DNA from: a virus
Taxonomy: Duplodnaviria; Heunggongvirae; Uroviricota; Caudoviricetes
Virus record (IMG/VR): IMGVR_UViG_3300042554_002914
Length of the DNA stretch: 64,000 nt
Direction: 5' to 3' (one strand)
The notes under the pieces: generated by a model
The model's database searches: none
What the model was told of the DNA's origin: nothing
The model's input: the letters and a program-made list of their open reading frames with translations, nothing else
Part shown: in pieces, positions 46,330 to 64,000 of the stretch
Layout of the letters: every line of letters begins with the position of its first letter
How positions within the stretch are numbered: the stretch's first letter is position 1
Program-made: the position numbers and the translations under genes

Positions 46330-46610
46330 TTGTTTGCGCTCCGGGTGTGATGTTACAAAACTTAACATTCCGGTGGCAGTTTGACGGAAATGAGTTAACT
46401 ATCGGGTGACAACACAAAACTTAACATTCCCATGGCAGTTTGACGGCGATGAGTTAGCTACCGGGTGACAACACAAAACTTAACATTCCGGTGGCAGTTT
46501 GACGGCAATGAGTTAACTATCGGGTGAGTTGTAATGAAACTTAACACACCATGGCAGGGAGTAATACAAAAGTACTAGCTTTCCTGACGGCAATACCCGG
46601 TGGCAATATC
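46330..46610. repeat. Zone-1 operator block: ~59-bp tandem unit x4 with HLR1-like site; LexA-like 46563
   Basis: ACAAAACTTAACATTCC..TGGCAGTTTGACGG..ATGAGTTA repeated. Confidence 0.85.
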
Positions 46611-47148: not shown

Positions 47149-47221
47149 TGGGGGCCACGAGGATCGGACTCGTCTTCTATTTGTTATGAGCAAATTGCAT
47201 TCACCAGATTGCTAGACCCCC
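47149..47221 (-). tRNA. tRNA with CAT anticodon (elongator Met or Ile2)
   Basis: GGGGGTC/GGCCCCC acceptor stem, GCA/TGC D arm with TGG, ATTTG-CTCATAA-CAAAT anticodon arm, ACGAG-TCCGATC-CTCGT T arm; no encoded CCA; atypical C at position 55. Confidence 0.85.
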
Positions 47222-48330: not shown

Positions 48331-48525
48331 TTTTTTCTCCGGGGTGTCTGTCTATTGTAGCATAGTGCTGGGGGGGGGTTGGGGTTTGCGGGTCGGTGTT
48401 GTGCTTCGGGTGTTAGGCTTCGGTAAGTTTGCGCTACGGTAAGTTGACTATCGGGTGCGATGTTACAAAACTTAACATTTCATTGGCATCGAGTTTGTGG
48501 TATGAGTTACTTAAATGTAATTATA

Positions 48526-48800
48526 GGGTGCTTTTTGCGAGTAATGTAGAATTCCGGGGTGTGTTTTCGGAGTAATGTAGAACGCCCCAAAATAAAAACC
48601 CAAAATTCAATCCTTGAGATCGATTGCAGGGGAACGGAGTTACTCCTAAAAAAATTAAAAATTTTAGGACCTTTTCAAAAACAGCATGAAAAATTCTACA
48701 TTTGAATGCAAATTCTGCACCCTACTACTATAATCGCATATAAATTATTTAATAGAAGACTCTTATCAATGAGTTATGATACATAAGAGTTCCTTATCAA
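48526..48800. repeat. Zone-2 long element copy 1 (tail A, core form 1)
   Basis: GGGTG-N-TAATGTAGAA repeats, GGAGTTACTCCTAAAA..TTTTAGGA core, inverted TTCTACATT..TGCACCC. Confidence 0.9.
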
Positions 48801-48872
48801 TAGGTAATAGCAGTAAAGCAAAAAAAAGGGAGGGTTACCCCTACCCATTCTTTGCGCTAAGTTTATCGCCAA

Positions 48873-49208
48873 TCAATCATTCTTGGCCTTCCATGCACGC
48901 AACCGGCTAATCGCCTCCTCTATGCTGCTGGCATTAGACTTACGGAATTTGGCCGTTTTGCTATAGGAGAACATTTCGATCTTCCCACCCCCGACGGAAA
49001 ACATTGCGTAGCGGGAATTGTGGAAAATTCCGTTAATCCATTCTTCCTTGGGGTCTAGGGATACCTTGACGATTAGGGAAGCGTTTTGCTCACCGCCAAG
49101 TGTGGACCTTTGCACAGAAGAAACCGGGAAGGTGGCATTAAGGGCAGCAGCCAGGGTCTCACGGTCGGCTTCGGTCGGGATGAAGGCGGTTGCGGTTGCG
49201 GTAGCCAT
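48873..49208 (-). CDS. Cassette hypothetical protein
   Basis: SLDPKEEWINGIFHNSRY motif. Confidence 0.75.
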   Translation of the reverse strand: MATATATAFIPTEADRETLAAALNATFPVSSVQRSTLGGEQNASLIVKVSLDPKEEWINGIFHNSRYAMFSVGGGKIEMFSYSKTAKFRKSNASSIEEAISRLRAWKAKND

Positions 49209-49287
49209 GTGGCGCTCCGGTTGGTGACTCTGTAATTATAGCACAAGGGGGGAAGGGGGCGCAAGCCCCCCAACCCCAGGCCATCAC

Positions 49288-49551
49288 TCAAACGGCAGCA
49301 GGCAGGTAAATCTCCAGGGTATAGGTAACCTCAGCCTCATCATAGGCCGCCAGCGTATCGGCCAGCTCCCCAAGCGTCACATAGTCACTGTAGTCGCCAT
49401 CGTCAATCAGGAATTCCATCTCATCGCCTTCGGCGGGTTCTTCCGATAGGTAGGGGGCACAGAAGGGGGCCAGTCCGGTGGGCATGGCGACGGGCAATGC
49501 AGCGAGGATTTCAGCCAGGGTAGGGGCAGTGGGGGCGGTTGCGGTAGCCAT
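49288..49551 (-). CDS. Cassette small acidic protein
   Basis: EEPAEGDEMEFLIDDGDYSDY; no Lys/Arg. Confidence 0.7.
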   Translation of the reverse strand: MATATAPTAPTLAEILAALPVAMPTGLAPFCAPYLSEEPAEGDEMEFLIDDGDYSDYVTLGELADTLAAYDEAEVTYTLEIYLPAAV

Positions 49552-49667
49552 GGTTTGGTGTCGGTGGGTGACTCTGTAATTATAGCATGGTTGCCGGTGG
49601 GTTGGCAACCCCTGGACTTTAATGGCTGGCAAGCAAGGGGCCACCGGCAGGCAACCCCCCCGTGCCA

Positions 49668-49994
49668 TTACTTGAAGAAATAGCCGAAATGGTCCCTTCC
49701 TTTGGTCAAGGTCATCAATTCTTCATGCTGCTTCAGGTAGGAATCGTTAGAAAGGATATGGTTGAAAGGCAGGTAGCTATACCAGACTTTTCCATCCCCT
49801 GTGCGCTTGGCGGCCCCCAGAACTAGCTCCCGGTTGACAACGGCCATCGGCTCATTCTGGTGGTCAAACAAAAGGATATCACGCTTCCGAACCTTGAAGA
49901 AGCCGGTAGCAGTCCCATCAGGCTGAAATAAGGTGTCGGCAAACTCTTTGGCGGTCTCCACAAACTTGCGACCGTTGATTGTGATGGTGGCCAT
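49668..49994 (-). CDS. Cassette hypothetical protein
   Basis: MATITINGRKF. Confidence 0.75.
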   Translation of the reverse strand: MATITINGRKFVETAKEFADTLFQPDGTATGFFKVRKRDILLFDHQNEPMAVVNRELVLGAAKRTGDGKVWYSYLPFNHILSNDSYLKQHEELMTLTKGRDHFGYFFK

Positions 49995-50140
49995 TGCGGC
50001 GTTCCGGTGTGGTTGACTCTGTAATTGTACCACATTGCAGGGGAGGTTGGGGTCTTGGGTTGCTGACTCCTGGGGTGTGGTGGACAGTTTGTAAACTGTC
50101 TATTTGACTCCGTGAGTTTGACTTTTAGGGTTTGATTCTG

Positions 50141-50400
50141 GGGTGTGTTTTCGGGGTCAATGTAGAATTCCGGGGTGCTTTTTCCGGGTAATGTGGAAAC
50201 TCTGAAATCAAAAACCCGAAACTCAATCCCTGAGATCGATTGCAGGGGAACGGAGTTACTCCTAAAAAAATTGAAAATTTTAGGACCTAATGAAAAATGA
50301 GTAAGAAAATTCTACATTTGAATGCAAATTATGCACCCTGGGGCTCTTTATATACACTTTTTCGCGAATATATGTATAATAAGTGTTTATCTTATGTTGT
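50141..50400. repeat. Zone-2 long element copy 2 (tail B, core form 1)
   Basis: Same architecture; tail ctttatatacactttttcgcgaatatatgtataataag. Confidence 0.9.
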
Positions 50401-50431
50401 TATAGTTTGTTGTTGATGGGTCCAAGTAATA

Positions 50432-50670
50432 AACAACTGGGATACAGTCTCAACAGTCTCGTTTCAGTCTCAACAGTCTCGTTTCAGTCTCACAATGAGA
50501 CTTAGCCGGATAGTCAACAACTGGGATACAGTCTCAACAGTCTCGTTTCAGTCTCACAATGAGACTTAGCCGGATAGTCAACAACTGGGATACAGTCTCA
50601 ACAGTCTCGTTTCAGTCTCACAATGAGACTTAGCCGGATAGTCAACAACTGGGATACAGTCTCAACAGTT
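50432..50670. repeat. 64-bp GTCTC-rich tandem repeat (~3.5 copies) between B and A elements
   Basis: aacaactgggatacagtctcaacagtctcgtttcagtctcacaatgagacttagccggatagtc. Confidence 0.9.
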
Positions 50671-50715
50671 TCAGCTAAGTATCGTAATGAGATCACACCT
50701 CAAGAGTAGACAGTT

Positions 50716-50990
50716 GGGTGCGTTTTTCCAGTAATGTAGAATCCTGGGGTGCTTTTTCTGAGTAATGCAGAATGCCCCAAATTAAAAACCTGAAATTCAA
50801 TCCCTGAGATCCGTTGCAAGGCAACGGAGTTACTCCTAAAATTTTTGAATTTTTTAGGACCTAATGAAAAACCATCCAAAAAATTCTACATTTGAATGCA
50901 TATTCTGCACCCTGCTATCATATACTCGCGTAAAAATTATTTAATAGAAGACTCTTATCTAAATGTCTAGACAGATAAGTAATTCTTATC
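50716..50990. repeat. Zone-2 long element copy 3 (tail A, core form 2)
   Basis: Core tcctaaaatttttgaattttttagga. Confidence 0.9.
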
Positions 50991-51134
50991 AATCTAATCC
51001 CCCATCAAACCGCAATGTTGTGGTCTATTCGAGGATGCTAACCGGAGTCTCACACCAAATAGCAAAGGGGGCCGATGCCGTATAGCACCAACCCCCAAAC
51101 ATTAAACTAATGTCAATCTAAGGCCAAACCAAGG

Positions 51135-51326
51135 TCAAACATAGAGACGAACCTGAGCCCGGAAGCACTTCCGGCCTTGTTTGAGCAGAATACTCTCAAT
51201 TTTTTTGGCCTGCTTCCAAGTCCATACCCGGTTGCCCCCTACGGGCTCAGACCATGGTTTGCGGGTGATTTCCTGAACGGTATAAAAGATGCGGGTTTTC
51301 TTGGGCTTAGCGATTGCGGTGGCCAT
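51135..51326 (-). CDS. Cassette small basic protein
   Basis: 63 aa; TTGACA/TACAAT promoter. Confidence 0.7.
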   Translation of the reverse strand: MATAIAKPKKTRIFYTVQEITRKPWSEPVGGNRVWTWKQAKKIESILLKQGRKCFRAQVRLYV

Positions 51327-51411
51327 GGTGCGTGTCGGTTGGTTGGTGACAGGTGAATTGTAGCATGGTGGCCGGGGGCTGTCAATGCCTTTGCAGTAGG
51401 GGCCCAGTTCC

Positions 51412-51560
51412 CAAATTTTCGGAGGGGGCGCTAGCCCCTTGCCATCTAGGCATCATCCCCTGGGCATCAATCCCTTTGCAGTAGGGGCCAGCCCCCAAAA
51501 TTTTCGGAGGGGGCGTTAGCCCCCGACTGGTTCGGGCGCCGATAGGCGGTATCCCGAACC
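51412..51560. repeat. Two inverted copies of the ~50-bp hairpin element
   Basis: aaattttcggagggggcg(c/t)tagcccc... Confidence 0.75.
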
Positions 51561-51588
51561 CAATCCCTAGGCATCCATCCCTGAGCCA

Positions 51589-51819
51589 TCAATCCCGGGG
51601 CATCAATCCCAGGGCATCATCCCCTAGGCTAGGCCGTGAGAGCTTTGGGTATATACCCCCTGTCCTAATCAGCCACCCAGCATCCACAAGGTCTTGGGCA
51701 GCATCGAGAACGCTCGCAACGTGGAAGTAGCCGACAAGATCCACCGTATCAACGGATACACCTGGGCGGTTCAGGAAGTACAGCTTAAGGGATTCACGGA
51801 TCCACTCAGGGGATTTCAT
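51589..51819 (-). CDS. Cassette small protein (wHTH-like)
   Basis: MKSPEWIRES...AAQDLVDAGWL. Confidence 0.6.
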   Translation of the reverse strand: MKSPEWIRESLKLYFLNRPGVSVDTVDLVGYFHVASVLDAAQDLVDAGWLIRTGGIYPKLSRPSLGDDALGLMPRD

Positions 51820-52027
51820 TGGTTGCTTGTGGGTGAGACTACAGTAGTATAACACAAAGGGGCCAGGATTGCCTATGGCTGATAGCAATGGCAGTATAGC
51901 ACAAAGGGCCAGGATTGCCTATGGCTAATAACAATGGCAGTATAGCACAAAGGGCCAGGAGGCACAAGCCCCCTAGCCCAGTGAAGGCAACGGTTTCGTC
52001 ACCCCCCCTGAATTCAATAGATGGAGG

Positions 52028-52261
52028 TCACATCCATTTCATAGCAATTTCCTGAGCAGTTGCCCCGAAAAAGTGTAACACCAAATCTCTGCGACCGCGA
52101 ATATTCAGGTTCAAGATGGTGCAAGCCCGATTAAGCTCACCGCCGTCGGCCTGAACTTCCTCCACTTCGCTAGGGGCCAGGGTCCTGAGGGAAGAACTCA
52201 GGTGGGAGTCTCCGATGTAACCCGATATGCGACGGCCGGTGTTAAGGGTGACGTAAATCAT
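52028..52261 (-). CDS. Cassette small protein (paralogue of 53434..53667)
   Basis: MIYVTLN...PSEVEEVQADGGEL...FFGATAQEI. Confidence 0.75.
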   Translation of the reverse strand: MIYVTLNTGRRISGYIGDSHLSSSLRTLAPSEVEEVQADGGELNRACTILNLNIRGRRDLVLHFFGATAQEIAMKWM

Positions 52262-52346
52262 TGTGGTTCGGGGTGGTTGCCCTCGGTTGGTTGACTCTGT
52301 AATTGTAGCATGGGGCCGACACGGTGTCAACCCCCCCCTTGGGCTT

Positions 52347-52649
52347 TCAGCGACACTGACTTAGAGGTGTGAAATCAAAGTGAATATCCCGCTCGATGCG
52401 GAGCCCAGCTGGCCCCCGAGTAGCCTCTAGGTCCCTGAGATTGAAGTACCCAAGTTCCCGTTCGTGTCCGACCACAAGACCGAAACATTGACCCGTCGCA
52501 GGATCCATCTCCGTGAGGTACCATGTCCAATTGCTCCAGGGCGTGAAAAACTTGGCATAGGATATAGCCTCCATGCCTTTGCCGTCCTGGCTGTAGATGG
52601 CGGGAACCTTGGTGGCGATTGCCTTGGTTAGTAGCTTGGTGTTGGCCAT
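52347..52649 (-). CDS. DUF2958 family protein
   Basis: KFFTPWSNWTWYLTE...FGLVVGHERELGYF.L..L...IERD. Confidence 0.85.
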   Translation of the reverse strand: MANTKLLTKAIATKVPAIYSQDGKGMEAISYAKFFTPWSNWTWYLTEMDPATGQCFGLVVGHERELGYFNLRDLEATRGPAGLRIERDIHFDFTPLSQCR

Positions 52650-52819
52650 GGTTGCCCTTGGTTGGTTGACTCAGGTATTATAGCACGGATGGGGATGGTG
52701 CCGTTACGATCTGAAACAACAGGCATGGACCACCGGCAGGCAGGCCCCCGTCCGACAAGTTGACTTCGGTATTATAGCACAGGCAGGCAGGGGGCGCAAG
52801 CCCCCCCACAGGCTAGATA

Positions 52820-52999
52820 TCAGAAGGGGGGATTCTCAGTCAGCTCGAAGCTATAGGCCCCAGTGTCGTTATTGCCGTGGCTGGAAGTATACCCTACCCT
52901 AACAAGACGCAGCGCTTCCTCTAGGGCAATTTCGATGTCATCCAGGGTTTGACCGCTGGCAGTCAATTTCAGGACAAACGGGGCAGCGAGGTCGTTCAT
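52820..52999 (-). CDS. Cassette small protein
   Basis: DIEIALEEALRLV..GYTS....NDTGAYSF. Confidence 0.7.
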   Translation of the reverse strand: MNDLAAPFVLKLTASGQTLDDIEIALEEALRLVRVGYTSSHGNNDTGAYSFELTENPPF

Positions 53000-53072
53000 T
53001 GTGGCGGTAGCAGGTGGTTGGTGACAGGGCAATCATAGCACAGGCAGGCATGGAACGCAAGCCCCTAGGCAC

Positions 53073-53360
53073 TCAGCAGCAAGGAACAATCCATTCCAGA
53101 TTCCAACGCTCACATTGAGTTATAAACTCATCACTAAAACCTGCCGAACACCAGAGAATACCAAAGTTCCCCACCTGAGTAGCAATCCTTCTTGGAGTGA
53201 CAAGGTTAGAGGTGACGACTACGCGGCGGTCCGATGAATCGCCTTCGCGGTTGTCAACAATGCAAACGATCGCTGCTTTTTGGGCAAGATACCATAGCTG
53301 GTAGTAATCGCGGGACGTTTGGTAGTTGGCAAGGGGTGCGGGGCTTGCGGGGGTGGTCAT
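53073..53360 (-). CDS. Cassette hypothetical protein
   Basis: YQTSRDY..LW...IVCIVD...FI..CE..NLEWIVP. Confidence 0.7.
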   Translation of the reverse strand: MTTPASPAPLANYQTSRDYYQLWYLAQKAAIVCIVDNREGDSSDRRVVVTSNLVTPRRIATQVGNFGILWCSAGFSDEFITQCERWNLEWIVPCC

Positions 53361-53433
53361 GGCGGTTTGGGTGCCGGTGGTTGGTGACAGGGTAATCATA
53401 GCACGTAGGGTCAGGGAACGCAAGCTCCGACCC

Positions 53434-53667
53434 CTAAACATCCCCACCCCAATTCATAACAATTTCCTGGGCGTTTGCCCCGAAAAAGCGGAACACACGG
53501 GAATGAACTTTCCGGTCCAAGATGGAGCAACAACCGTAAAGTTCATCACCGTCTGCCTGAACTTCCACTACTTCGCTAGGGTTCAGGGATTTAAGTACGG
53601 AAGTCAGGTGGGGACCCCCGAGGTGACCGGATAGGGAATGGCCGTTGTTAAGGGTGACGTAGATCAT
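53434..53667 (-). CDS. Cassette small protein (paralogue of 52028..52261)
   Basis: MIYVTLN...EVQADGDEL. Confidence 0.75.
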   Translation of the reverse strand: MIYVTLNNGHSLSGHLGGPHLTSVLKSLNPSEVVEVQADGDELYGCCSILDRKVHSRVFRFFGANAQEIVMNWGGDV

Positions 53668-53908
53668 TGCGGTTCGGGTGGTTGCCGTTTGGTGCGGTAC
53701 CCCGTAATTATAGCACGGGGGCCGGGGATGCCGGGGGTTGATGCCGGGGGTTGATGCCGGGGGTTGATGCCGGGGGTTGATGCCGGGGGTTGCTGTGGGG
53801 TTGCTGTGGGGGGTTGAGTATCTGGGGTTGTTGACTCCTGAGGTGTGGTGGACAGTTTGTAAACTGTCTATTTGCGTTGGGAGTTATGACGCTGGGGTTG
53901 GGGGCCGA

Positions 53909-54212
53909 GGGTGCGTTTTCAGGGTAATGTGGAACCTTAGGGTGCGTTTTCAGGGTAATGTGGAACCTTAGGGTGCGTTTTCAGGGTAATGTAGAATGCC
54001 CCAAATTAAAAACCTGAAATTCAATCCCTGAGATCCGTTGCAAGGCAACGGAGTTACTCCTAAAATTTTTGAATTTTTTAGGACCTAATGAAAAACCATC
54101 CAAAAAATTCTACATTTGAATGCATATTCTGCACCCTACTATCATATATTCGCGTAAAAATTATTTATAGTACACTCTTATCTAAATGTCTAGACAGATA
54201 AGAAATTCTTAC
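53909..54212. repeat. Zone-2 long element copy 4 (tail A, core form 2, three 31-bp iterons)
   Basis: agggtgcgttttcagggtaatgt(g/a)gaa x3. Confidence 0.9.
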
Positions 54213-54308
54213 CTATAAGCACAATCAATGAGTTAAGAACCAGAAGACAAAAAAAGGGGGGCCATTGCCTTAGCAACAACCCCCCAACCTTTAATCGAAT
54301 GGCAACAA

Positions 54309-54506
54309 TCAAGTAGCCGCCAACGCAGCTTCAGCCTCGACAATACGGGCAGCTTTGTTGTGTGCCATTTCGGCTCTAAGTGCCTTAAGGAGGTCCGCAG
54401 ATGCTTTCAAGCCCTCAGCACCGATGACCCCTTGATTGTAAAGGTCGATAGCACCCCCCGCTGCAAAGTGGGCGTAATAGGCTCGTTGGTAACGTGTTTG
54501 GGCCAT
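54309..54506 (-). CDS. Cassette small protein
   Basis: MAQTRYQRAYY. Confidence 0.7.
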   Translation of the reverse strand: MAQTRYQRAYYAHFAAGGAIDLYNQGVIGAEGLKASADLLKALRAEMAHNKAARIVEAEAALAAT

Positions 54507-54616
54507 TTTGCTGTGGGGCGGTTGCCCCTGGTTGGTTGGTTGGTTGGTTGGTGACTTTGGTAATATAGCACGGGGCCAACACAGTGTCAACCCCGGTACC
54601 ATCAAACCCTTGGGGA

Positions 54617-54850
54617 TCAACAACCCCGGAGAGAGGCGTCCACTTCCCTAATAAAAGCCCATTCCCCGTTCCTATTGGCATAGACGTGAACAGGTATCAA
54701 TATCTGCTCGGACCATTCTAGGGCTGCGTCTTCGGCTTCGTCGGAGTAGCAGGAGGAGAAAAATACAGCCTCAGTCTCAAAGTCAAATCCCCCACCTGTG
54801 GGCAGAATGGCGAAGGTGGCGGGGGGAGTGATGATGGTTGCTGAGTCCAT
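54617..54850 (-). CDS. Cassette small protein (paralogue of 45653..45895)
   Basis: MDSATIIT...FDFETEAVFF. Confidence 0.75.
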   Translation of the reverse strand: MDSATIITPPATFAILPTGGGFDFETEAVFFSSCYSDEAEDAALEWSEQILIPVHVYANRNGEWAFIREVDASLRGC

Positions 54851-54926
54851 GTTGCCGTTTGGTGCGGTTGACTCTGTAATTGTACCATGGATGGGCCAGG
54901 GAACGCAAGCCCCCCCAACCCCCTTT

Positions 54927-55127
54927 TTAATAAGCCCCCAGGGCAATAGGAGAGCTGAAGGTGCCATTCCCGTACTGGAAGATAGCATAGAGCTTACGAC
55001 CCCTGGGGCGCTTCACTACATAACGTGTACGGGATTCTTTGATGCCACCAAAGCATTCAGCTTCAAACTGTCGGGTACTTACGACGTTGTAGGTGATGCT
55101 GTCGATTGTGAGGGTTGCCGGGGTCAT
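54927..55127 (-). CDS. Cassette small protein
   Basis: MTPATLTIDS...VKRPRGRKLY. Confidence 0.7.
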   Translation of the reverse strand: MTPATLTIDSITYNVVSTRQFEAECFGGIKESRTRYVVKRPRGRKLYAIFQYGNGTFSSPIALGAY

Positions 55128-55282
55128 CGTTGCCGTTTGGTGCGGTACCCTGTAATTATAGCATGGGGCCGAGGGTGCTGTCAACCCTTGGGATGCGGTC
55201 TCATTGGTCTCAGTTGGGTATCAAGGTGGGATTTCGGTTTGACTTTGACTTCGTGAGTTATGGCACTAGGGTTGAGTACCAA

Positions 55283-55540
55283 GGGTGCATTTTGTGAGTA
55301 ATGTAGAATTCCAGGGTGCATTTTGCAAGTAATGTAGAAACCCCAAAATCAAAAACCCGAAAGTCAATCCCTGAGATCCATTGCAGGGGAACGGAGTTAC
55401 TCCTAAAAAAATTAAAAATTTTAGGACCTAGTTGAAAACCATCCAAAAAATTCTACATTTGAATGCATATTATGCACCCTGGGGCTCTTTATATACACTT
55501 TTTCGCGAATATATGTATAATAAGTGTTTATCTTATGTTG
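55283..55540. repeat. Zone-2 long element copy 5 (tail B, core form 1)
   Basis: Same architecture. Confidence 0.9.
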
Positions 55541-55751
55541 TTGGACCCGAGTAGTAAACAACTGGGCGTGGTTCCACCAGTCTTAGCTAAGTATCGCAAT
55601 GAGTCTACATCGAGTAGTTTACAGTTGGCATCAGTCCCAACAGTCTCGTTTCAGTCCCACAATGAGACTCACCCAAGTAGTAAACAACTGGGATACGGTC
55701 TCAACAGTTTCGTTTCAGTCCCATAATGAGACCACACCTCAGGGTAAACAT

Positions 55752-56060
55752 GGCAGGTATTTTCGGAGTTAATGTGGAACCTTGGGGTGCTTTTTGCCAG
55801 CAATGTAGAATACCAGGGTGCGTTTTCCGGTTAATGCAGAAACCACAAAATCAAAAAACCAAAATCCATTCCTTGAAATCGACTGCAGGGGAACGGAGTT
55901 ACTTCTAAAATTTTTGAATTTTTTAGGACCTAGTTGAAAACAGCATGAAAAATTCTACATTTGAATGCAAATTCTGCACCCTACTACTATAATCGCATAT
56001 AAATTATTTAATAGAAGACTCTTATCTAAATATCCATAATCAATAAGTTATCCTTATCTA
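55752..56060. repeat. Zone-2 long element copy 6 (tail A, core form 2)
   Basis: Same architecture; degenerate GTCTC spacer at 55550-55740. Confidence 0.9.
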
Positions 56061-56241
56061 TGTACCAACCAATAGGTAATAGCAGTAAAGCAACAAAAAA
56101 AGGAGGGTCACCTTTCGGCAGCCCCCTTATCAGTAAGTATTTATATTTACGGGGTGAAATTGGACCCCGGAGCCAACAACCCCGGAGCCAACAACCCCGG
56201 AGCCAACAACCCCGGAGCCAACAACCCCGGCAGCCCAACCT

Positions 56242-56571
56242 TCAATAGCCAGCAAAGTCATACCTATCGAAAGGCACCGAATCCCGCTTCACCTCAGATT
56301 CGACAATTTTGCGTGATTCGCTGTCATAATGGCGCACAATGACAGACTCGGTGGCAAAACCCCAATTTTCATCAGGTTGCCGGGTATAATGGACCTTGGC
56401 ATCATCCAGGCTGGCCCATGCGAATTTTTCCTGAGAGCCGACTACATTCTCCACCGCATCCATGGTTTGGCAGAGCACAACCCCGTCGGCACTCCTAACA
56501 GTATAACCAGCAATGCGCTTGCCAACTTCATCGGTCGTGACGTAGTAGTAGTCGATGGTGGGGTCAACCAT
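56242..56571 (-). CDS. Cassette hypothetical protein
   Basis: 109 aa; own promoter. Confidence 0.75.
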   Translation of the reverse strand: MVDPTIDYYYVTTDEVGKRIAGYTVRSADGVVLCQTMDAVENVVGSQEKFAWASLDDAKVHYTRQPDENWGFATESVIVRHYDSESRKIVESEVKRDSVPFDRYDFAGY

Positions 56572-56702
56572 GTGGCGCTCCGTGTTGTACTTGCGTATTG
56601 TAGCACGGGGGTGTCGGTGCCGTTATGGTTGGTGACGCTTCGTAACGACAGGCACGGCAAGGGGCCCCGGCAGGCAAGCCCAGCCATCAGACTGTAATGG
56701 CA

Positions 56703-56888
56703 TCAACTCAAACGGACAACGGATTCCCCTACCCGGCCTTCACAATTTCCACAATCGTCTGCCTGTTGTTCAGTGATTTCTGAAGTAGAGCAACAATCAA
56801 CATCAGTTAAACCTCCCCAATTCTCATAAAACATAACCTCAAGATCAGGTCCGGCAAGAAGTTTCTTAGCGAGTTCGTGTGCTTTCAT
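56703..56888 (-). CDS. Cassette small protein
   Basis: MKAHELAKKLLAGPDLEV. Confidence 0.7.
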   Translation of the reverse strand: MKAHELAKKLLAGPDLEVMFYENWGGLTDVDCCSTSEITEQQADDCGNCEGRVGESVVRLS

Positions 56889-56965
56889 TGTTGCTTGCGT
56901 AGATGGTCGGAAAGTTGATAACGATGGTAGTATAGCACGGATGGGCAAGGTGCCGGGGCGCAGGG

Positions 56966-57202
56966 TCAGCCTGCGTTAAAACTTGCCAACACAATGCCCT
57001 GACGGGTCCCGGGAGCAGCGGTTCCAATCGGCTCAACTGTTACTTGGTCCGGGCTATTGCACCATGATGTATAGGGATTACCCCAATCACAATCCCCAGG
57101 GTGAATGTTCCTGGCCTCATCTTCACTTTTGGCGCAAACTATGGCGCTGTAGTAAGTGTCGTAACCTTTGTTGACAGTTTGGCTGATTTTGTAGAGTTTC
57201 AT
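56966..57202 (-). CDS. Phage small protein
   Basis: YDTYYSAIVCAKSEDEARNIHP...IGTA...LASFNAG. Confidence 0.8.
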   Translation of the reverse strand: MKLYKISQTVNKGYDTYYSAIVCAKSEDEARNIHPGDCDWGNPYTSWCNSPDQVTVEPIGTAAPGTRQGIVLASFNAG

Positions 57203-57317
57203 TGCTTGCGTTTTGGTTGGTGGACTTCGGTACTATAGCACAAGGAGGTCAGGGTTACAAGGGGGAACAACAGGCACGGCAAGGGGCCAGGGTTCACAAC
57301 CCCGACCCCCAGGACAG

Positions 57318-57692
57318 TCAACCAAGGGCCACAATGGCTTGTAAATTGGTGCGCCACGTTCCCGGCAGCTTCTCACCACGACGACCCACGATCACGGGCA
57401 ATTCCCCGACCATCTCCACTACCGTATCAATTTCAAACACTTGCAAGGTCGCAGCCAGCCAGGTTCCAAACCAGCGAGTCCGACCCGTGGCCTTGGCAAT
57501 GTAACGGCAGCCATGGGGGCCTTCCAAGGCAAACTCTCCTTCCTCAAGGCAAAGATCATGGGGTGCATCAGCCAGGACATCCCAGTGACCCCACCAGCCT
57601 TTACGGTCGCCACCAGGGGCCTTCTCGCAGGGCTCAGCGGTGTAGGAACCGATGCGGTTGATGGGTGAGGTGGTGGCGGTTGCGAAGGTCAT
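57318..57692 (-). CDS. Cassette hypothetical protein
   Basis: MTFATATTSP. Confidence 0.7.
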   Translation of the reverse strand: MTFATATTSPINRIGSYTAEPCEKAPGGDRKGWWGHWDVLADAPHDLCLEEGEFALEGPHGCRYIAKATGRTRWFGTWLAATLQVFEIDTVVEMVGELPVIVGRRGEKLPGTWRTNLQAIVALG

Positions 57693-57784
57693 TTGCCGGG
57701 GGGTGCGATACCTTGAAATTATAGCATGTTGCCAATGGGGTCGGGGTGCATCCCAACCACAAAACTGCCTACTAGCAACAAAAC

Positions 57785-58120
57785 TTAACCCATAATGCCC
57801 CCAGGCCAACGTCCTCCCGGCGGGGTGCGCTCTGATGGGGATAGTTCGGGTGTTTCATCATAATAGCTAGGACGCAACTTGGCGAGGCGCTCTGCGTCGG
57901 AGACGCATCGGCAGCATGGATTGTGCCCATTTTCCGCCATATAATTAGCGCCGCGCTTTGTTCTGAATGGTCCGATAACTGCCATGTAGTACGGGGTATT
58001 GGCTTCGGTAGGGGTAACTACCGATTTGAAAACTTCCCGGTTACCTTGGTCGTATAACAAACCCACATAGAATTTTGCCCGTTGGGGTGTGTTAGTGGTT
58101 GAGGGGGTTGCGGTAGCCAT
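57785..58120 (-). CDS. Cassette hypothetical protein
   Basis: VIGPFRTKRGA..MA...NPCC..V.DAERLA. Confidence 0.75.
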   Translation of the reverse strand: MATATPSTTNTPQRAKFYVGLLYDQGNREVFKSVVTPTEANTPYYMAVIGPFRTKRGANYMAENGHNPCCRCVSDAERLAKLRPSYYDETPELSPSERTPPGGRWPGGIMG

Positions 58121-58263
58121 CGTTGCGGTGTCGGTTGGTTGGCTTCGTAATTATAGCACATGGCCGGGTGTGGGTGCGGTTCGGCATGTTGACTCCCGAG
58201 GTGTGGTGGACAGTTTGTCAAGTGTCTATTTGCGTTGGGAGTTTGACTTCAGGGGTTGATTCC

Positions 58264-58525
58264 GAGGTGTATTTTCGGAGTTAATGTGGAATCTCAGGGT
58301 GCTTTTTCCGGGTAATGTAGAAACCCTAAAATCAAAAACCCGAAAGTCAATCGCTGAGATCGACTGCAGGGCAACGGAGTTACTCCTAAAAAAATTAAAA
58401 ATTTTAGGACCTAATGAAAAAACGATCCAAAAGTTCCACATTTGAATGCATATTATGCACCCTGGGGCTCTTTATATACACTTTTTCGCGAATATATGTA
58501 TAATAAGTGTTTACCTTATGTTGTT
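58264..58525. repeat. Zone-2 long element copy 7 (tail B, core form 1)
   Basis: Same architecture. Confidence 0.9.
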
Positions 58526-58731
58526 GGTGAGTTGAATAGTTGACGACTGGGTGTGATCTCGTCGGTCTCAGTTGAGTATCGGAATGAGTTCACATCGAGT
58601 AGTCTACAGTTGGGATACAGTCTCGTTTCAGTCCCACAATAAGACTCATCCAAATAGTCAACAACTAGGGTACGGTCTCAACAGTCTCACTTCAATCTCA
58701 CAATGAGATCACACTTCAAGAGTAAACAGAT

Positions 58732-59010
58732 GGGTGCATTTTCGGAGTAATGTGGAATCTCAGGGTGCTTTTTCCGGGTAATGTAGAAACCCTAAAATCA
58801 AAAACCCGAAAGTCAATCGCTGAGATCGACTGCAGGGCAACGGAGTTACTCCTAAAAAAATTAAAAATTTTAGGACCTAGATGAAAACCATCCAAAAAAT
58901 TCTACATTTGAATGCATATTCTGCACCCTACTACTATATACTCGCGTAAAAATTATTTATAGTACACTCTTATCTAAATATCCATAATCAATAAGTTTTC
59001 CTTATCCATA
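58732..59010. repeat. Zone-2 long element copy 8 (tail A, core form 1)
   Basis: Left ~125 bp identical to copy 7. Confidence 0.9.
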
Positions 59011-59095
59011 GGTCAATCAATGAGTAATAGCAGTAAGGCAACAAAAAAAAAGGGGGGGAATCACCCTAAGGCAATCCCTCCCCTAAAAACAGCAC

Positions 59096-59281
59096 CTATG
59101 CCCAAATGGTCTCAACACGGGCATCATGCCCCTTCAGCTTCATCGCTTCGGCGATTCTCTGAGCCACGTTCCGATCATGGTAATCGGCCCTGGTGGTATA
59201 GCCAGGAGCCCCAGAACCAGTGGCGATCAAACCAGTGGCAATCGGACTGGGGGCAATGGTGACACGGTATAGTTGGGCCAT
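59096..59281 (-). CDS. Cassette small protein
   Basis: 61 aa; own promoter. Confidence 0.7.
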   Translation of the reverse strand: MAQLYRVTIAPSPIATGLIATGSGAPGYTTRADYHDRNVAQRIAEAMKLKGHDARVETIWA

Positions 59282-59356
59282 GGTGCGGTTTGGTGTGGTA
59301 CCACGTAATTATAGCATTATGCCGTGGCATTGGCAAGCACGGGGCCGGGGGGAACG

Positions 59357-59731
59357 TCAACCCCGCCCATACTGGCGAACCCTCTCCAAATAGGTCCCCC
59401 AAACCGACGGATCCATGGCACCTGCCGTTGTCTTAAAGTGATGGGAGAAAAACGTAATGGCAAGCTCCATATTGCGCCTACCAACAGGATTAGCAGAATG
59501 AATGACCACAGCCGGTGGAATAAACCCACCATCAAAACCATTCTCATACACAATTTGCTCAATCCACTTGCAAACATCCATGCCAGTTCCCCTAGCGTCA
59601 TCCCCGAGATCATGATCCAAGGATACAACTTCGACATTGCCAGTCTTCAGCAATTCGATAACCTCATCAGGCCAATAGCAACGGACCCATCCATCAGGGG
59701 TAGGCCTGATATCATCGAGGAATACTTTCAT
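59357..59731 (-). CDS. Cyclic-phosphate-processing receiver-like domain protein
   Basis: VFLDDIRPTP.GW, SLDHDLG, GMDV..WI, IHSANPVG. Confidence 0.8.
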   Translation of the reverse strand: MKVFLDDIRPTPDGWVRCYWPDEVIELLKTGNVEVVSLDHDLGDDARGTGMDVCKWIEQIVYENGFDGGFIPPAVVIHSANPVGRRNMELAITFFSHHFKTTAGAMDPSVWGTYLERVRQYGRG

Positions 59732-60187
59732 TGCCTTGGGGTTAGGTAGACTGTGGGCGTGGTTGCCATTGGGGAGGTCCGGTGGGTTACGGCAGGGGAA
59801 TCATAGCATGGCCCTGGCAGGTTAGTTGGTGGCCCCGTAATTATAGCACAGGGGGGCCAGGCTACGGGTGCCGTTACATTCCGTAACAACAGGTACGGCA
59901 AGGAGTCACTGGATGGCAACCCCTGTAAAGAATTGGCCAGGTTGTGGGGCTATGCTTTCGCTCCTGAAGGGTAGCCAGGCGAAGAAGGGCAGCCCTGCGG
60001 CTGATAGTCCTACTTCCATTTCCCACTATTTGCCTTCACGTCTACCTGTATTTTGGGTTGTGACCCTATTGTAGCATGGGCCTGGCAGTGTCAACTCCCC
60101 ATAGCTTTAACCAAATGGCAAGCATGGGGCGGACGGGAACGCAACCCCTAGACTTTAATGGCTGGCAAGCATGGGGCCGAGGCAGAG

Positions 60188-60382
60188 TCAACCCTCAGGG
60201 TCCTTGGGGCTGCTGTCATCAAGTAAAGCCATTGCGACTATGGATCCAATGAAAAGTAGAAACCATAACGTACTCATCATCGCCAAGTGTCCAAAGTCCC
60301 CCTTAGCTACATAATAAGCAGCAGAGAATATGTTATATTGGGTGAGAATAAACTTGGCGTTACGTTTGAGGATTGACAGCAT
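60188..60382 (-). CDS. Cassette small membrane protein
   Basis: Hydrophobic C-terminal half. Confidence 0.65.
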   Translation of the reverse strand: MLSILKRNAKFILTQYNIFSAAYYVAKGDFGHLAMMSTLWFLLFIGSIVAMALLDDSSPKDPEG

Positions 60383-60548
60383 GGTGTGTCCGGTGGTTGT
60401 TGGTTACGGTTCCATTATAGCATGGGTCCAGCAGGCCAGTGATAGGGGAATTATACCACAGGTCCGGCAGACAGTGGAAAGGGGCCAATGCCAACAGCAC
60501 CAACCCCCCATGCAATCGGCCAATGCCAACAGCAGCCAGCGGCAACAA

Positions 60549-60809
60549 TCAGCCTGCAGCCACTGCAAGCAGCCGATCAGCCACTGCGCCCTTCGCAGTA
60601 CGCTTCCCATCGAGATAATACAAGGTATAGACCCGCCCCGGCTTCACACTGGGGGTGACCGTGATGGCCAGGGCCTTGCCGTTGATGCGGATGGTAGTTT
60701 CGGCTTTGGTGCCGGATTCCGTTGCTTGTTGCACGGTGTTGGCCTCGGTGGAATCAAGACGGGCAATCAGGGTGTCAAACTTGCGAATGGTCAGAGGAGG
60801 AGTAGCCAT
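60549..60809 (-). CDS. Cassette small protein
   Basis: Preceded by two tandem TTGACA-17-TATAAT promoters. Confidence 0.75.
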   Translation of the reverse strand: MATPPLTIRKFDTLIARLDSTEANTVQQATESGTKAETTIRINGKALAITVTPSVKPGRVYTLYYLDGKRTAKGAVADRLLAVAAG

Positions 60810-60846
60810 GGTTGGTGGAGGGTGGGTTGTGGTGGGGTGAATCCCC

Positions 60847-60955
60847 GGGACCTTGCCATTATAGGCGAGACAATGGATGTTGTCAATACCCGGTTAATGG
60901 TGGGGATCGTCGGGACCTTGCCATTATAGGCGAGACAATGGATGTTGTCAATACC
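60847..60955 (-). promoter_or_regulatory. Tandem-duplicated perfect sigma70 promoter
   Basis: TTGACA-acatccattgtctcgcc-TATAAT twice (44-bp direct repeat). Confidence 0.85.
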
Positions 60956-61160
60956 TGGTGGCAAGATCCCCCGAGGGTCACCATATTATGGCATATTGCC
61001 GATGTTATTGCAACCCCTTGGCCCCGGTTTATACCTTGGCTTGTTCGCCCCCCGCCACGATGTGTTAAGTTTTGTAACGATCTGGGGGCAATTAAGTTTT
61101 GTAACGATTCGGAGTTTGTTACCCTGTGGCATCGACTCGGAGTTTGCCATCCCCAAGGCA

Positions 61161-61189
61161 TTGACAGCTGCCGGGGTCCACTCTATAAT
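61161..61189 (+). promoter_or_regulatory. Perfect sigma70 promoter on the plus strand, preceded by two inverted HLR1-like sites
   Basis: TTGACA-17-TATAAT; ttaagttttgtaac at ~61065 and ~61092. Confidence 0.8.
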
Positions 61190-61472
61190 ACGCAGACAAC
61201 CAAACGAGGGGTGAGGTAACCCTGCTGACGAAAAAGGTCGCCACCGAACCTGCCTGCTTATAGTTATTATAGGATAGTAAAAAAAAGGGGGGGTTGACCC
61301 TCGGGTTTTATCCCAGAGTCAATATCCCAGAGTCATAGCCCCAGAGTCAATATCCCAGAGTCATAGCCCCAGAGTCATAGCCCCAGAGTCAAACCCCAGG
61401 GTCATAACCCCGAAGCCACAACCCCGAAGCCACAACCCCGAAGCCACAACCCCGAAGTCAAACCCCACGCAC

Positions 61473-61931
61473 TCAAGAATTACGGGCAATGACTTTTTTC
61501 AGGAATTTCAAACCATCTTCATTGGTATCAAAGAAATGGGATCCAGCCTCATCACCTAGCAATAGGCGACCAGCTCTATCAGGCAATTCGGAGAACCCCA
61601 CTTCACCCGCCATCACTTGGGCGGTTCCCGCGATACAATGGACCGTACCACATTCGTTGAAGGCTTCTTTACCCGTAATTTCTTTGCCAAGGTCGGTACG
61701 AAACATTAAGGGGCCCCATGCCCGATGCCAATTTCCCATATCGAAGTTATCCAAATCACGCTCTACAATCCAAAGCGCCGCATGGAGAAGGTTAGCTTCT
61801 TGTTGCTCGGGAGTGAGTTTGATATTTAGGTTTTCAGGAATGTGGGGCAACGGGGGAAGGCCGGGAGTAGTATCCAGCTTCTGGAGATTTAGGCGAGTAG
61901 CTTCAGAGAGGGTGAGGGTGGATGTTGTCAT
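61473..61931 (-). CDS. Cassette hypothetical protein
   Basis: FDMGNWH...CGTVHCIAGTAQ...HFFDTNE motif. Confidence 0.75.
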   Translation of the reverse strand: MTTSTLTLSEATRLNLQKLDTTPGLPPLPHIPENLNIKLTPEQQEANLLHAALWIVERDLDNFDMGNWHRAWGPLMFRTDLGKEITGKEAFNECGTVHCIAGTAQVMAGEVGFSELPDRAGRLLLGDEAGSHFFDTNEDGLKFLKKVIARNS

Positions 61932-62070
61932 GGTTTTGGAAGGGGGATAGTTGCCTGGTTGGTTGGTTGCTCTGTAATTATAGCACATGGCGGGGTAGGG
62001 TGCAACCTCCCGGAGTCATGACCCTGGGGCCACAACCCCGAAGCCACACCCCCAATCCCCAATCCCAAAG

Positions 62071-62544
62071 TCATGCCGCAGCTAACTGCTTATTCCGCGA
62101 ATAGAAACGCTCACAGCCATACTTGGCCGCAATTTCATTCAGACTACCCGGATTGGAGCGGCTCCGGCCCAACCCAGCAGGCTTCCAGAACCAGCATTGC
62201 CGGCCCCTATGCCAGCAGCACCCCAGAGCCTTAAGGTCTTCCTTAACGGGCTTGGTATCACCCGTGACCCATACCCATAGGCCAATAAGGCTGATATCAA
62301 GGTTGGGAATCTTAAGCAATTCTGCGATCTGGTCCATAATGGCTTGTTCGGTCTTGGCAGTGTAGCGATAGGTGCGCCCCTCAGCTTCTTGACCGTTGCA
62401 GGCTGCCAGGGCCCCATGGTACGCAGCATTAAGGGCCTTCATGGTTTCCAGGTCGCCGCCCAGATCAGGGTGGTGCTTGCGAGCCAGATCACGGTAAGCG
62501 CTTTTGACTTGCTCAACGGTGGTGAAGCCAGTGAAGAATGTCAT
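62071..62544 (-). CDS. J-domain (DnaJ-like) protein
   Basis: VKSAYRDLARKHHPDLGG..TMKALNAAY; C-terminal IGLWVWVTGDTK domain. Confidence 0.85.
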   Translation of the reverse strand: MTFFTGFTTVEQVKSAYRDLARKHHPDLGGDLETMKALNAAYHGALAACNGQEAEGRTYRYTAKTEQAIMDQIAELLKIPNLDISLIGLWVWVTGDTKPVKEDLKALGCCWHRGRQCWFWKPAGLGRSRSNPGSLNEIAAKYGCERFYSRNKQLAAA

Positions 62545-62808
62545 TGCCGGTTCCAGGTGGTGGGTGGGAACGATGTTAGTGTAGCATGGTTGCCGGTGGG
62601 TCGTCAACCCCCCTTTTTTTAGGGGGAAGGTTAAAACCGCTACCTGCTGACCCATGAATTATATCACAGGGCAGGCATGGGGCCAGGGGCAATGTCAACC
62701 CTCTAGTTTTGGTCCCTTGCTTGCTGACCCATGAATTATAGCATGTCCGGGGGCCAACTGTGGATGGCCGGGAGTTAGTGCTCATGGGCCGACACATTGC
62801 CGAAAGGA

Positions 62809-62838
62809 TTGACAAGGCTAAGGTAGTCACCCTATAAT
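62809..62838 (+). promoter_or_regulatory. Plus-strand sigma70 promoter pointing into long element copy 9
   Basis: TTGACA-18-TATAAT. Confidence 0.7.
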
Positions 62839-62901
62839 GGGCAAACAATCAGAGAAGGGGCCTTGCCCACAGGTAATAGGTTATGCCACGGGGCTATGCC
62901 A

Positions 62902-63160
62902 TGGTGCGTTTTGCCGTTAATGTAGAATTTTGGGGTGTGTTTTCGGGGTTAATGTGGAATCGTCAAAATCAAAAACCCAATTTTCATTTCCCCAAATCCA
63001 TTGCAAGGGAACGGAGTTACTCCTAAAATTTTTGAATTTTTTAGGACCTAGTTGAAAACCATCCAAAAAATTCTACATTTGAATGCATATTATGCACCCT
63101 GGGGCTCTTTATATACACTTTTTCGCGAATATATGTATAATAAATGTTTATCTTATGTTG
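62902..63160. repeat. Zone-2 long element copy 9 (tail B, core form 2)
   Basis: Same architecture. Confidence 0.9.
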
Positions 63161-63233
63161 TGGTAGTTGGTATCGGCAACCCACCTAACCGTTTACAAAT
63201 GGGATACAGTCTCAGTTGAGAACCGCAATGAGT

Positions 63234-63701
63234 CTACCATCCCGCACCAGATACAGTAAGTTGCACAAGCATACAATTCATATTGCTAATCCAGGCATGA
63301 CGCACATTGGAATCAAAAATAAATACATCCCCAGATTTAATCCTTAGAAGGAGATCCATCCCAGAGACAAAAAGCTCAACGTAGTCGCCGGATGGGTCCC
63401 TTTCTTGCACGGCATTGATGGGCCTAATATCAATCATCCAAGATAATACAGTCCCCATCCCATCATCTTCATGGCAAAGGATTGATCCAGAAAGGGGCAA
63501 CAGACAAGGGGTCAAATACCCCATTACTTTCTTATACTCCAATCCCTTGCCACTAGCAAAGTCTGCTAACGGTTTAACTAGATCGTCTGTAAGTTTTAGA
63601 CTCACGGGCTCAATACTCCCTAGATAGCACGGTGAGTAAATGAGGGGGAATTCGGTCGGAGTCTCGATGTTACCTAAGACTTTTGCTTCTAGGTGGGTCA
63701 T
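63234..63701 (-). CDS. Putative 2OG-Fe(II) oxygenase/cupin-fold protein
   Basis: ILCHEDD (HxD) ... GDVFIFDSNVRHAW (distal His). Confidence 0.6.
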   Translation of the reverse strand: MTHLEAKVLGNIETPTEFPLIYSPCYLGSIEPVSLKLTDDLVKPLADFASGKGLEYKKVMGYLTPCLLPLSGSILCHEDDGMGTVLSWMIDIRPINAVQERDPSGDYVELFVSGMDLLLRIKSGDVFIFDSNVRHAWISNMNCMLVQLTVSGAGW

Positions 63702-63720
63702 GGTTGGGGTTTGGTGCCGA

Positions 63721-64000
63721 GGGTGCATTTTGTGAGTAATGTAGAATGCCGAGGGTGCATTTTCCAAGTAATGTAGAATGTTGGGTGCAGTTTTTTGAGT
63801 AATGTGGAACTCCCCAAAATAAAAATCCAAAATTCAATCCCTGAGATCCGTTGCAAGGCAACGGAGTTACTCCTAAAATTTTTGAATTTTTTAGGACCTA
63901 ATGAAAAACCATCCAAAAAATTCTACATTTGAATGCATATTCTGCACCCTACTATCATATATTCGCGTAAAAATTATTTATAGTACACTCTTATCTAAAT
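63721..64000. repeat. Zone-2 long element copy 10 (tail A, core form 2; runs off window)
   Basis: Three iterons, core at 63871-63896. Confidence 0.9.

Follow-up and report, generated by a model that had tools for sequence, protein, structure and literature searches.

A family of repeated DNA-level modules among the early genes of an uncultured lake jumbo cyanophage

The homologous regions (hrs) of baculoviruses are AT-rich, non-coding repeats of imperfect palindromes that occur several times beside early genes and are hot spots for recombination and for changes in gene content. They are bound by a viral transactivator and have both enhancer and origin activity. The iteron origins of pSC101, P1 and F, as well as the lambda origin, combine two or three phased direct repeats with bent AT-rich DNA and an inverted repeat over a promoter that is aimed away. 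The attachment site attP of phage lambda, at about 240 bp, combines bends and a central dyad with arm-type sites that are oppositely oriented. T5 is a large lytic phage, and at the injection stop signal of its early region it has a repeat-rich, non-coding stretch with direct and inverted repeats and palindromes. And the promoter–early stem-loop (PeSL) cassettes of T4-type phages, reportedly described by Arbiol et al. in 2010, place repeated regulatory DNA between small early genes and favor modular shuffling. Here we describe an element with some likeness to each of these: a module of ~270 bp that is found ten times in a 64,000-nucleotide stretch of viral DNA (IMG/VR record IMGVR_UViG_3300042554_002914; "the window" refers to this whole stretch). 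The modules are a real, conserved, and recombining family of DNA-level elements for which we found no described counterpart. We tentatively propose that they are operator-like.

The modules also differ from each of these systems. The hrs belong to insect viruses and are dispersed, while here eight to ten copies lie within 15 kb of a 279-kb phage genome. (A sequence-only reading of the window had likened the modules to dispersed hrs; the copies are instead crowded in the early region.) Also, an hr is a string of identical palindromes, while the module is one asymmetric unit with both direct and inverted bipartite sites. The layout resembles that of iteron origins, but the promoter-like site is not followed by a rep gene, neither a Rep_3 nor a DnaA gene was found, the copies number eight to ten instead of one or a few, and strand composition does not switch. 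Unlike attP, the modules are not accompanied by a match to an integrase or resolvase, and their exchange points do not seem to be fixed. The repeats of promoter and terminator that surround the modules fit the PeSL plan, but the modules themselves are four times longer, their core lacks an early promoter on the gene strand, and their internal architecture comprises many motifs. In T5, there is one locus per terminal repeat, instead of eight to ten dispersed units.

Anatomy and setting of the modules

Exact searches with anchor words found ten modules in the window, all on the plus strand and all within 48.5–64 kb, with none in 1–48 kb. Each module has a core of ~200 bp, followed by a tail of type A or B. 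In the alignment, the core begins with two or three bipartite repeat units; an A-rich arm leads from these to an invariant dyad block, and a second A-rich arm leads from the block to an inverted unit. A repeat unit has the left half GGGTGY, a T-tract, and the right half TAATGTRGAA, and the units recur with a period of 31–32 bp (three units in copies 4, 6, and 10; two in the remaining copies). The dyad block includes GGAGT-T-ACTCC, which is exact in nine of the ten copies and differs by a single change in copy 6; it overlaps a dyad of the form 8-N10-8. The inverted unit is present in all ten. Along the window, the order of the tails is A, B-A, A, B-A, B-A, B-A. The sequence-only reading had listed these features (ten ordered and co-oriented copies, two or three direct repeats of ~31 bp, the overlapping dyads, one inverted unit, and this order of tails), and the word searches and alignment show that it was correct in all essentials. 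It had also claimed phased A-tracts; the support for phasing is only moderate, with an AA/TT vector sum of 11–14.5 at 10–10.5 bp as compared to 5.7 ± 3 in shuffled sequences. The spacings of the motifs fall on helical multiples (31, 21–22, and 10 bp), and when the 100-bp stretches of the window are ranked by AT content, the modules account for 10 of the top 12.

The two types of tail are homologous in plan, not unrelated. In three of the B-A pairs, the modules are separated by 64-bp tandem units that are rich in CAGTCTC; in the fourth (copies 9 and 10), they are separated by a remnant of the 64-bp unit and by a gene for a 155-amino-acid protein. The modules and the sequences between paired copies are:

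48526–48722, plus strand: core of copy 1, with two repeat units, bent arm, dyads, and inverted unit
48723–48825, plus strand: tail A of copy 1, with CTTAT, ATAAG, and CTTAT boxes; adjoins the minus-strand terminator of the gene at 48873–49208
50141–50338, plus strand: core of copy 2
50339–50401, plus strand: tail B of copy 2, nearly invariant, with TATACA-18-TATAAT on the plus strand
50402–50715, plus strand: B-to-A spacer between copies 2 and 3, with about four 64-bp tandem units, rich in CAGTCTC
50716–50912, plus strand: core of copy 3
50913–51000, plus strand: tail A of copy 3
53909–54136, plus strand: core of copy 4, with three repeat units; a solitary copy which, with the two genes to its right, has no counterpart in the 279-kb relative (described below)
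54137–54240, plus strand: tail A of copy 4
55283–55479, plus strand: core of copy 5
55480–55542, plus strand: tail B of copy 5
55543–55753, plus strand: B-to-A spacer between copies 5 and 6, with about three units
55754–55981, plus strand: core of copy 6, with three repeat units, the first of them degenerate, and one change in the dyad
55982–56085, plus strand: tail A of copy 6
58265–58462, plus strand: core of copy 7
58463–58525, plus strand: tail B of copy 7
58526–58731, plus strand: B-to-A spacer between copies 7 and 8
58732–58928, plus strand: core of copy 8, with 132 bp identical to copy 7
58929–59030, plus strand: tail A of copy 8
62903–63099, plus strand: core of copy 9; a perfect plus-strand consensus promoter at 62809–62838 aims into it
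63100–63162, plus strand: tail B of copy 9
63234–63701, minus strand: gene for the 155-amino-acid protein, located between copy 9 and copy 10; weak cupin-like match
63721–63949, plus strand: core of copy 10, with three repeat units
63950–64000, plus strand: start of tail A of copy 10, cut by the end of the window

The ATG of the 155-amino-acid gene comes 16 nt after the last repeat unit in copy 10, and the gene lacks an early promoter of its own. It must be transcribed through copy 10 or from within it. We also considered whether the loop of the dyad might be inverted between copies (flip/flop). However, its two forms are not reverse complements: the central TTGAA has a constant orientation, and only the flanking runs of A or T differ.

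The window is the early-gene region of an uncultured freshwater (lake) jumbo cyanophage with a genome of ~280 kb, and the modules lie between early genes in it. Its notable open reading frames are all on the minus strand. Proteins encoded in 1–38 kb include a GyrA that is 51% identical to that of Synechococcus phage S-CBWM1, a TyrRS, a thymidylate kinase, and a DUF1517 protein. On the minus strand, there are 42 extended −10 promoters (TGnTAnAAT) in 38–64 kb versus 6 in the first 38 kb. The plan of 38–64 kb is a series of cassettes, each with a TGnTAnAAT promoter, a short leader, a small open reading frame, and its own terminator; because of these promoter-dense small genes with their own terminators, we identify this as the early-gene region. 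A complete relative (IMG/VR contig G002, 279,339 bp) is 80–95% identical to the window over most of the aligned early-region segments, and has a similarly promoter-dense region at 130–156 kb. In both phages, the organization of these regions into cassettes is PeSL-like. The genes of the 279-kb relative are essentially all on one strand, and so is almost all of the annotation of 1–50 kb of S-CBWM1, which is a cultured relative.

The 279-kb relative is classed as complete because of a 124-bp overlap between its ends (a "direct terminal repeat"), but this overlap falls within an open frame of 1,459 amino acids. The overlap is therefore an assembly artefact that does not mark the physical ends, and the map is circular. 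This also means that a "mid-genome" placement of the module cluster in this relative would be meaningless.

Conservation and recombination

Module matches were confined to three related viral contigs and to twelve stretches from eight metagenome contigs. A 34-mer from the core had no match in a collection of phages, and neither this 34-mer nor the inverted unit had a match in 185,579 prokaryote genomes. Using the repeat-unit junction, tail B, or a neighboring protein as the query gave no wider relatives beyond the same three viral contigs. (A match in an unrelated AT-rich phage lies within a gene and is a chance match.) A literature search found no description of such elements. The statement in the sequence-only reading that no phage element with this layout had been described thus agrees with our searches of Rfam, the phage collection, the prokaryote genomes, and the literature.

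The window and its relatives together yielded 42 distinct copies, of which 27 have a tail of type A and 15 one of type B. The 279-kb relative carries eight co-oriented modules at 139.7–154.4 kb, mostly syntenic with those of the window and all in the upstream half of its promoter-dense region. Tail B is the best-conserved part of the module, with 96.7% identity over 55 nt across the 15 copies, as compared to ~75% for the repeat units, and 70–78% when the arms are counted with them.

Paralogous copies share identical runs of 90–171 bp. Such runs are shared by copies 4 and 10 (171 bp), copies 3 and 4 (145 bp), and copies 7 and 8 (132 bp); the sequence-only reading had noticed the last of these, as ~125 bp, but not the two longer ones. 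The variable segments of the module (left arm, dyad loop, right spacer, and tail) each have a few alternative forms, which assort independently. At 84–93% identity, orthologous cores from the window and the 279-kb relative do not surpass the flanking genes in conservation, and sometimes fall below them. This pattern fits patchwise conversion.

The relatives also differ at four loci by whole units that are bounded by modules. Copy 4 and its two genes are an extra unit in the window as compared to the 279-kb relative. That relative lacks the 155-amino-acid gene: where the window has copy 9, the gene, and copy 10, it has one hybrid module. And in other contigs, single hybrid modules take the place of the pair of copies 2 and 3 or the pair of copies 7 and 8. 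Because the copies are mosaic and the relatives differ by whole units of module plus cassette, the sequences indicate that the modules recombine with one another, as the sequence-only reading had suggested in calling them recombination platforms. Ordinary homologous exchange between long direct repeats (at least 200 bp) is the economical explanation for these insertions and deletions.

A proposed role for the modules

Several lines of evidence suggest that the modules act as DNA instead of as RNA or protein. RNAalifold on 39 distinct copies gave a covariation term of −0.45 kcal/mol, and just 2 of the 27 predicted pairs are compensated in any copy. In a would-be 7-bp hairpin, one arm varies freely without compensation while the other is invariant, and the A/G polymorphism of the repeat unit is unmatched by the T/C polymorphism of the inverted unit. 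The predicted fold of tail A has only an invariant 5-bp stem, and the B-to-A spacers fold no better than shuffled sequences on either strand (z of about −1). Rfam gave no match, either at gathering scores or at E ≤ 1. No reading frame is open in all 39 copies, in agreement with the sequence-only reading, which had called them non-coding. Among the contigs returned from JGI and ENA assembly records, none was recognizable as transcript-derived. The lack of covariation, of a stable fold, and of a common open frame, together with the helical spacings of the motifs, points to a function at the level of double-stranded DNA. Our reading is that the modules probably offer several DNA-binding proteins their sites on DNA that is intrinsically bent. 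A cruciform at the central dyad does not seem to be involved, as the DNA hairpin is weak (−4.5 kcal/mol; z of −1.3 to −1.7).

These results also bear on whether the modules are genes for structured non-coding RNAs or a mobile element of the MITE type. The modules do have terminal inverted units (direct ones to the left, an inverted one to the right), an AT-rich interior, and promoter-like tails. However, besides the lack of RNA structure or of a match in Rfam or in the prokaryote genomes, the copies are syntenic between relatives, the conserved tails run past the inverted unit, and we saw no target duplication. We consider this explanation to be very improbable.

The tails look like promoters. 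All 15 of the B tails have TATACA-18-TATAAT on the plus strand. In 26 of the 27 A tails, a gap of 18 nt separates a TTGAAT within the inverted unit from a TAnnAT hexamer downstream, and the boxes of tail A lie at +40, +61/62, and +71/72 in the 27 copies. The inverted unit would thus cover the −35 box and the spacer of a putative sigma-70-like promoter that is directed outward, against all of the genes. Plus-strand transcription is plausible because there are two perfect plus-strand consensus promoters nearby (61161–61189 and 62809–62838). We also considered, and set aside, three other kinds of promoter. Only half of the A tails contain a word like the late promoter of T4, and the rest of the window makes no use of it. 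The repeat unit could have been a promoter for a phage sigma factor, but the word is almost confined to the modules. And for a resemblance to a Syn5-type promoter, we found no match to that family of single-subunit RNA polymerases, which is weak evidence, since the controls were silent as well.

We propose that a sequence-specific protein, from either the early phage genes or the host, would occupy both sides of the module: two or three bipartite 31-bp sites in its left part, and the lone inverted site in its right part. Between these, ~110 bp would be folded by the A/T-phased arms along with a dimer on the central dyads, and the fold would close a nucleoprotein complex over the inverted site. 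As the inverted site would span the −35 box and spacer of the outward promoter, the complex would switch this promoter, whose direction is antisense to every gene, and would mark the boundary of an early transcription unit. As a side effect or a second use, modules would serve as direct repeats of at least 200 bp, so that homologous recombination could convert patches or could add or remove units of module plus cassette. Our proposal fits the restriction of the modules to the part of the genome that is dense in TGnTAnAAT early promoters, and their common orientation. The sequence-only reading had proposed a platform for replication, segregation, or recombination. A DNA-level, protein-binding type of element that is recombinationally active is in accord with our results; an origin is not supported by the skew at four-fold sites or by our search for two initiator families (see below); and a regulated outward promoter with its operator, which that reading had not considered, also fits the layout. 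We infer protein binding, looping, and control of the promoter from the anatomy of the modules.

Several observations weigh against this proposal. The promoters of the tails match only 9–10 of 12 consensus positions, which AT-rich DNA easily gives, and a promoter scan of the whole region found 39 sites where ~20 were expected from shuffles. The predicted plus-strand RNAs have no conserved structure or obvious target. Among 24 neighboring small proteins, none has a recognizable DNA-binding domain, and we did not find a gene of the HU/IHF family in the complete relative. All of the copies are from one narrow clade, so their conservation partly reflects recent common descent and conversion. And a layout of many motifs across 240 bp exceeds that of ordinary operators, and is of the kind that is seen at origins and att sites. 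Overall, we put the operator-like reading at somewhat less than an even bet.

The alternative that was raised by the sequence-only reading is that the modules are one or more origins of replication: with an initiator on the repeat units, the bent DNA would melt, as would the AT-rich dyad or tail, and the outward promoter would provide activation or a primer, as at the origins of lambda and pSC101 or at the transcription-primed origins of T4 and T7. The helically phased direct units, the inverted unit by a promoter-like site, the phased A/T tracts, and the easily melted DNA would all fit, and an inverted pair of pentamers beside a 20-bp tract of pure A/T recalls the core origins of SF3 helicases. 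But eight to ten copies crowded into 15 kb are unusual for origins, which are expected at one or a few dispersed sites, and a primer from the plus-strand promoters would launch synthesis head-on against all transcription. The 279-kb relative has no gene for Rep_3 or DnaA, which were the two initiator families that we searched for, and a search for ParB found none. The bulk GC skew of this genome does peak in the module cluster. However, the skew at four-fold degenerate sites has one sign around the whole genome, with no switch at the cluster, so we attribute the bulk peak to gene composition, and GC skew does not serve here as a marker of the origin or terminus. We consider origins to be unlikely. 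We also speculate that the modules could be the phage equivalent of hrs: hubs for several proteins that would at once gate transcription (antisense or early), be able to fire as origins primed by transcription, and serve as exchange points for early-gene cassettes, with the nearly invariant B unit as a non-coding passenger that spreads between modules. This broader idea is doubtful too.

Another alternative is that the modules are att-like sites for the exchange of cassettes, at which the arms, bends, and dyad would assemble a recombinase, and circles of tail B plus spacer (with or without a gene) would integrate into solitary A modules. The size and layout of attP, with its opposite arm-type sites around a core dyad, suggest this, as does the gene inside one of the B-A pairs. 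Furthermore, the insertions and deletions are bounded by modules: at three loci, the alternatives are a hybrid module on its own and a B-spacer-A pair, and copy 4, along with its two genes, is extra. Yet we found no match to the tyrosine or serine recombinase families in the complete relative, the identical runs and patch boundaries vary between pairs of copies (which is expected from homologous recombination or conversion, and not from a fixed crossover), and direct repeats of 200 bp account for the indels without a dedicated enzyme. This seems rather improbable. We would say much the same of arrays that host regulators or nucleoid proteins would bind, which might act as decoys, as landing pads that tie early expression to the state of the host, or as DNA-entry or packaging signals in the portion of the genome that enters first. 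This would explain why the modules are confined to the early region of a genome with one direction of transcription, why they contain at least five distinct conserved words with islands of related repeat words next to them, and why no phage-encoded binder was found among the neighboring small proteins. But none of the words is known to match a cyanobacterial regulator site, having several packaging signals would be harmful, and the end overlap of the 279-kb relative, being an artefact, does not place the ends of the genome.

If the modules do bind a regulator and control outward promoters, then this clade of uncultured lake jumbo cyanophages would gain its first defined elements for control of the early program. 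As all of the genes of these phages are on one strand, antisense transcription, if there is any, would be an exception made deliberately. Should the modules instead be origins or hr-like hubs, this would extend to phages a design that has so far been described for large DNA viruses of eukaryotes. Under either reading, the modules are a concrete, sequence-defined bait for finding the protein that binds them, and they explain where the cassettes of early genes come and go in these genomes.

Other repeats and genes of the early region

Other intergenic repeats lie near the modules. Three 59-bp tandem repeats are found at 46355–46527, and one related unit is at 48440–48520, immediately to the left of copy 1. 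These repeats have the word AATGAGTT in common with the 64-bp units of the B-to-A spacers, so the intergenic islands seem to be made from a common repeat vocabulary. At 61284–61480 there are ~13 tandem copies of a 14-bp unit that contains CAGAGTC, and a second short array is at 61995–62080. The perfect plus-strand promoter at 61161–61189 (TTGACA-17-TATAAT) aims into the first of these arrays. In the 279-kb relative, 155.38–155.72 kb, which is just upstream of the last module and corresponds to a location beyond the end of the window, contains the most AT-rich 100 bp of that genome. It is non-coding, has repeated words of the type ATAACACTATCGTTATA, and is another candidate for a control or origin region.

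A scan for tRNAs found one gene, for tRNA-Met (47149–47221, minus strand), which is inside the early region and outside the region with the modules. A small early protein encoded at 59357–59731 (minus strand) has a clear cREC_REC domain (cyclic-phosphate processing receiver; E = 1e-26).

The 279-kb relative encodes two sigma-70-family proteins, at ~10.1 kb and 16.2 kb. In this genome, the word GGGTAAA occurs 61 times on the gene strand versus 27 times on the other strand, and is enriched upstream of non-early genes. GGGTAAA is a candidate promoter for one of these two sigma factors.

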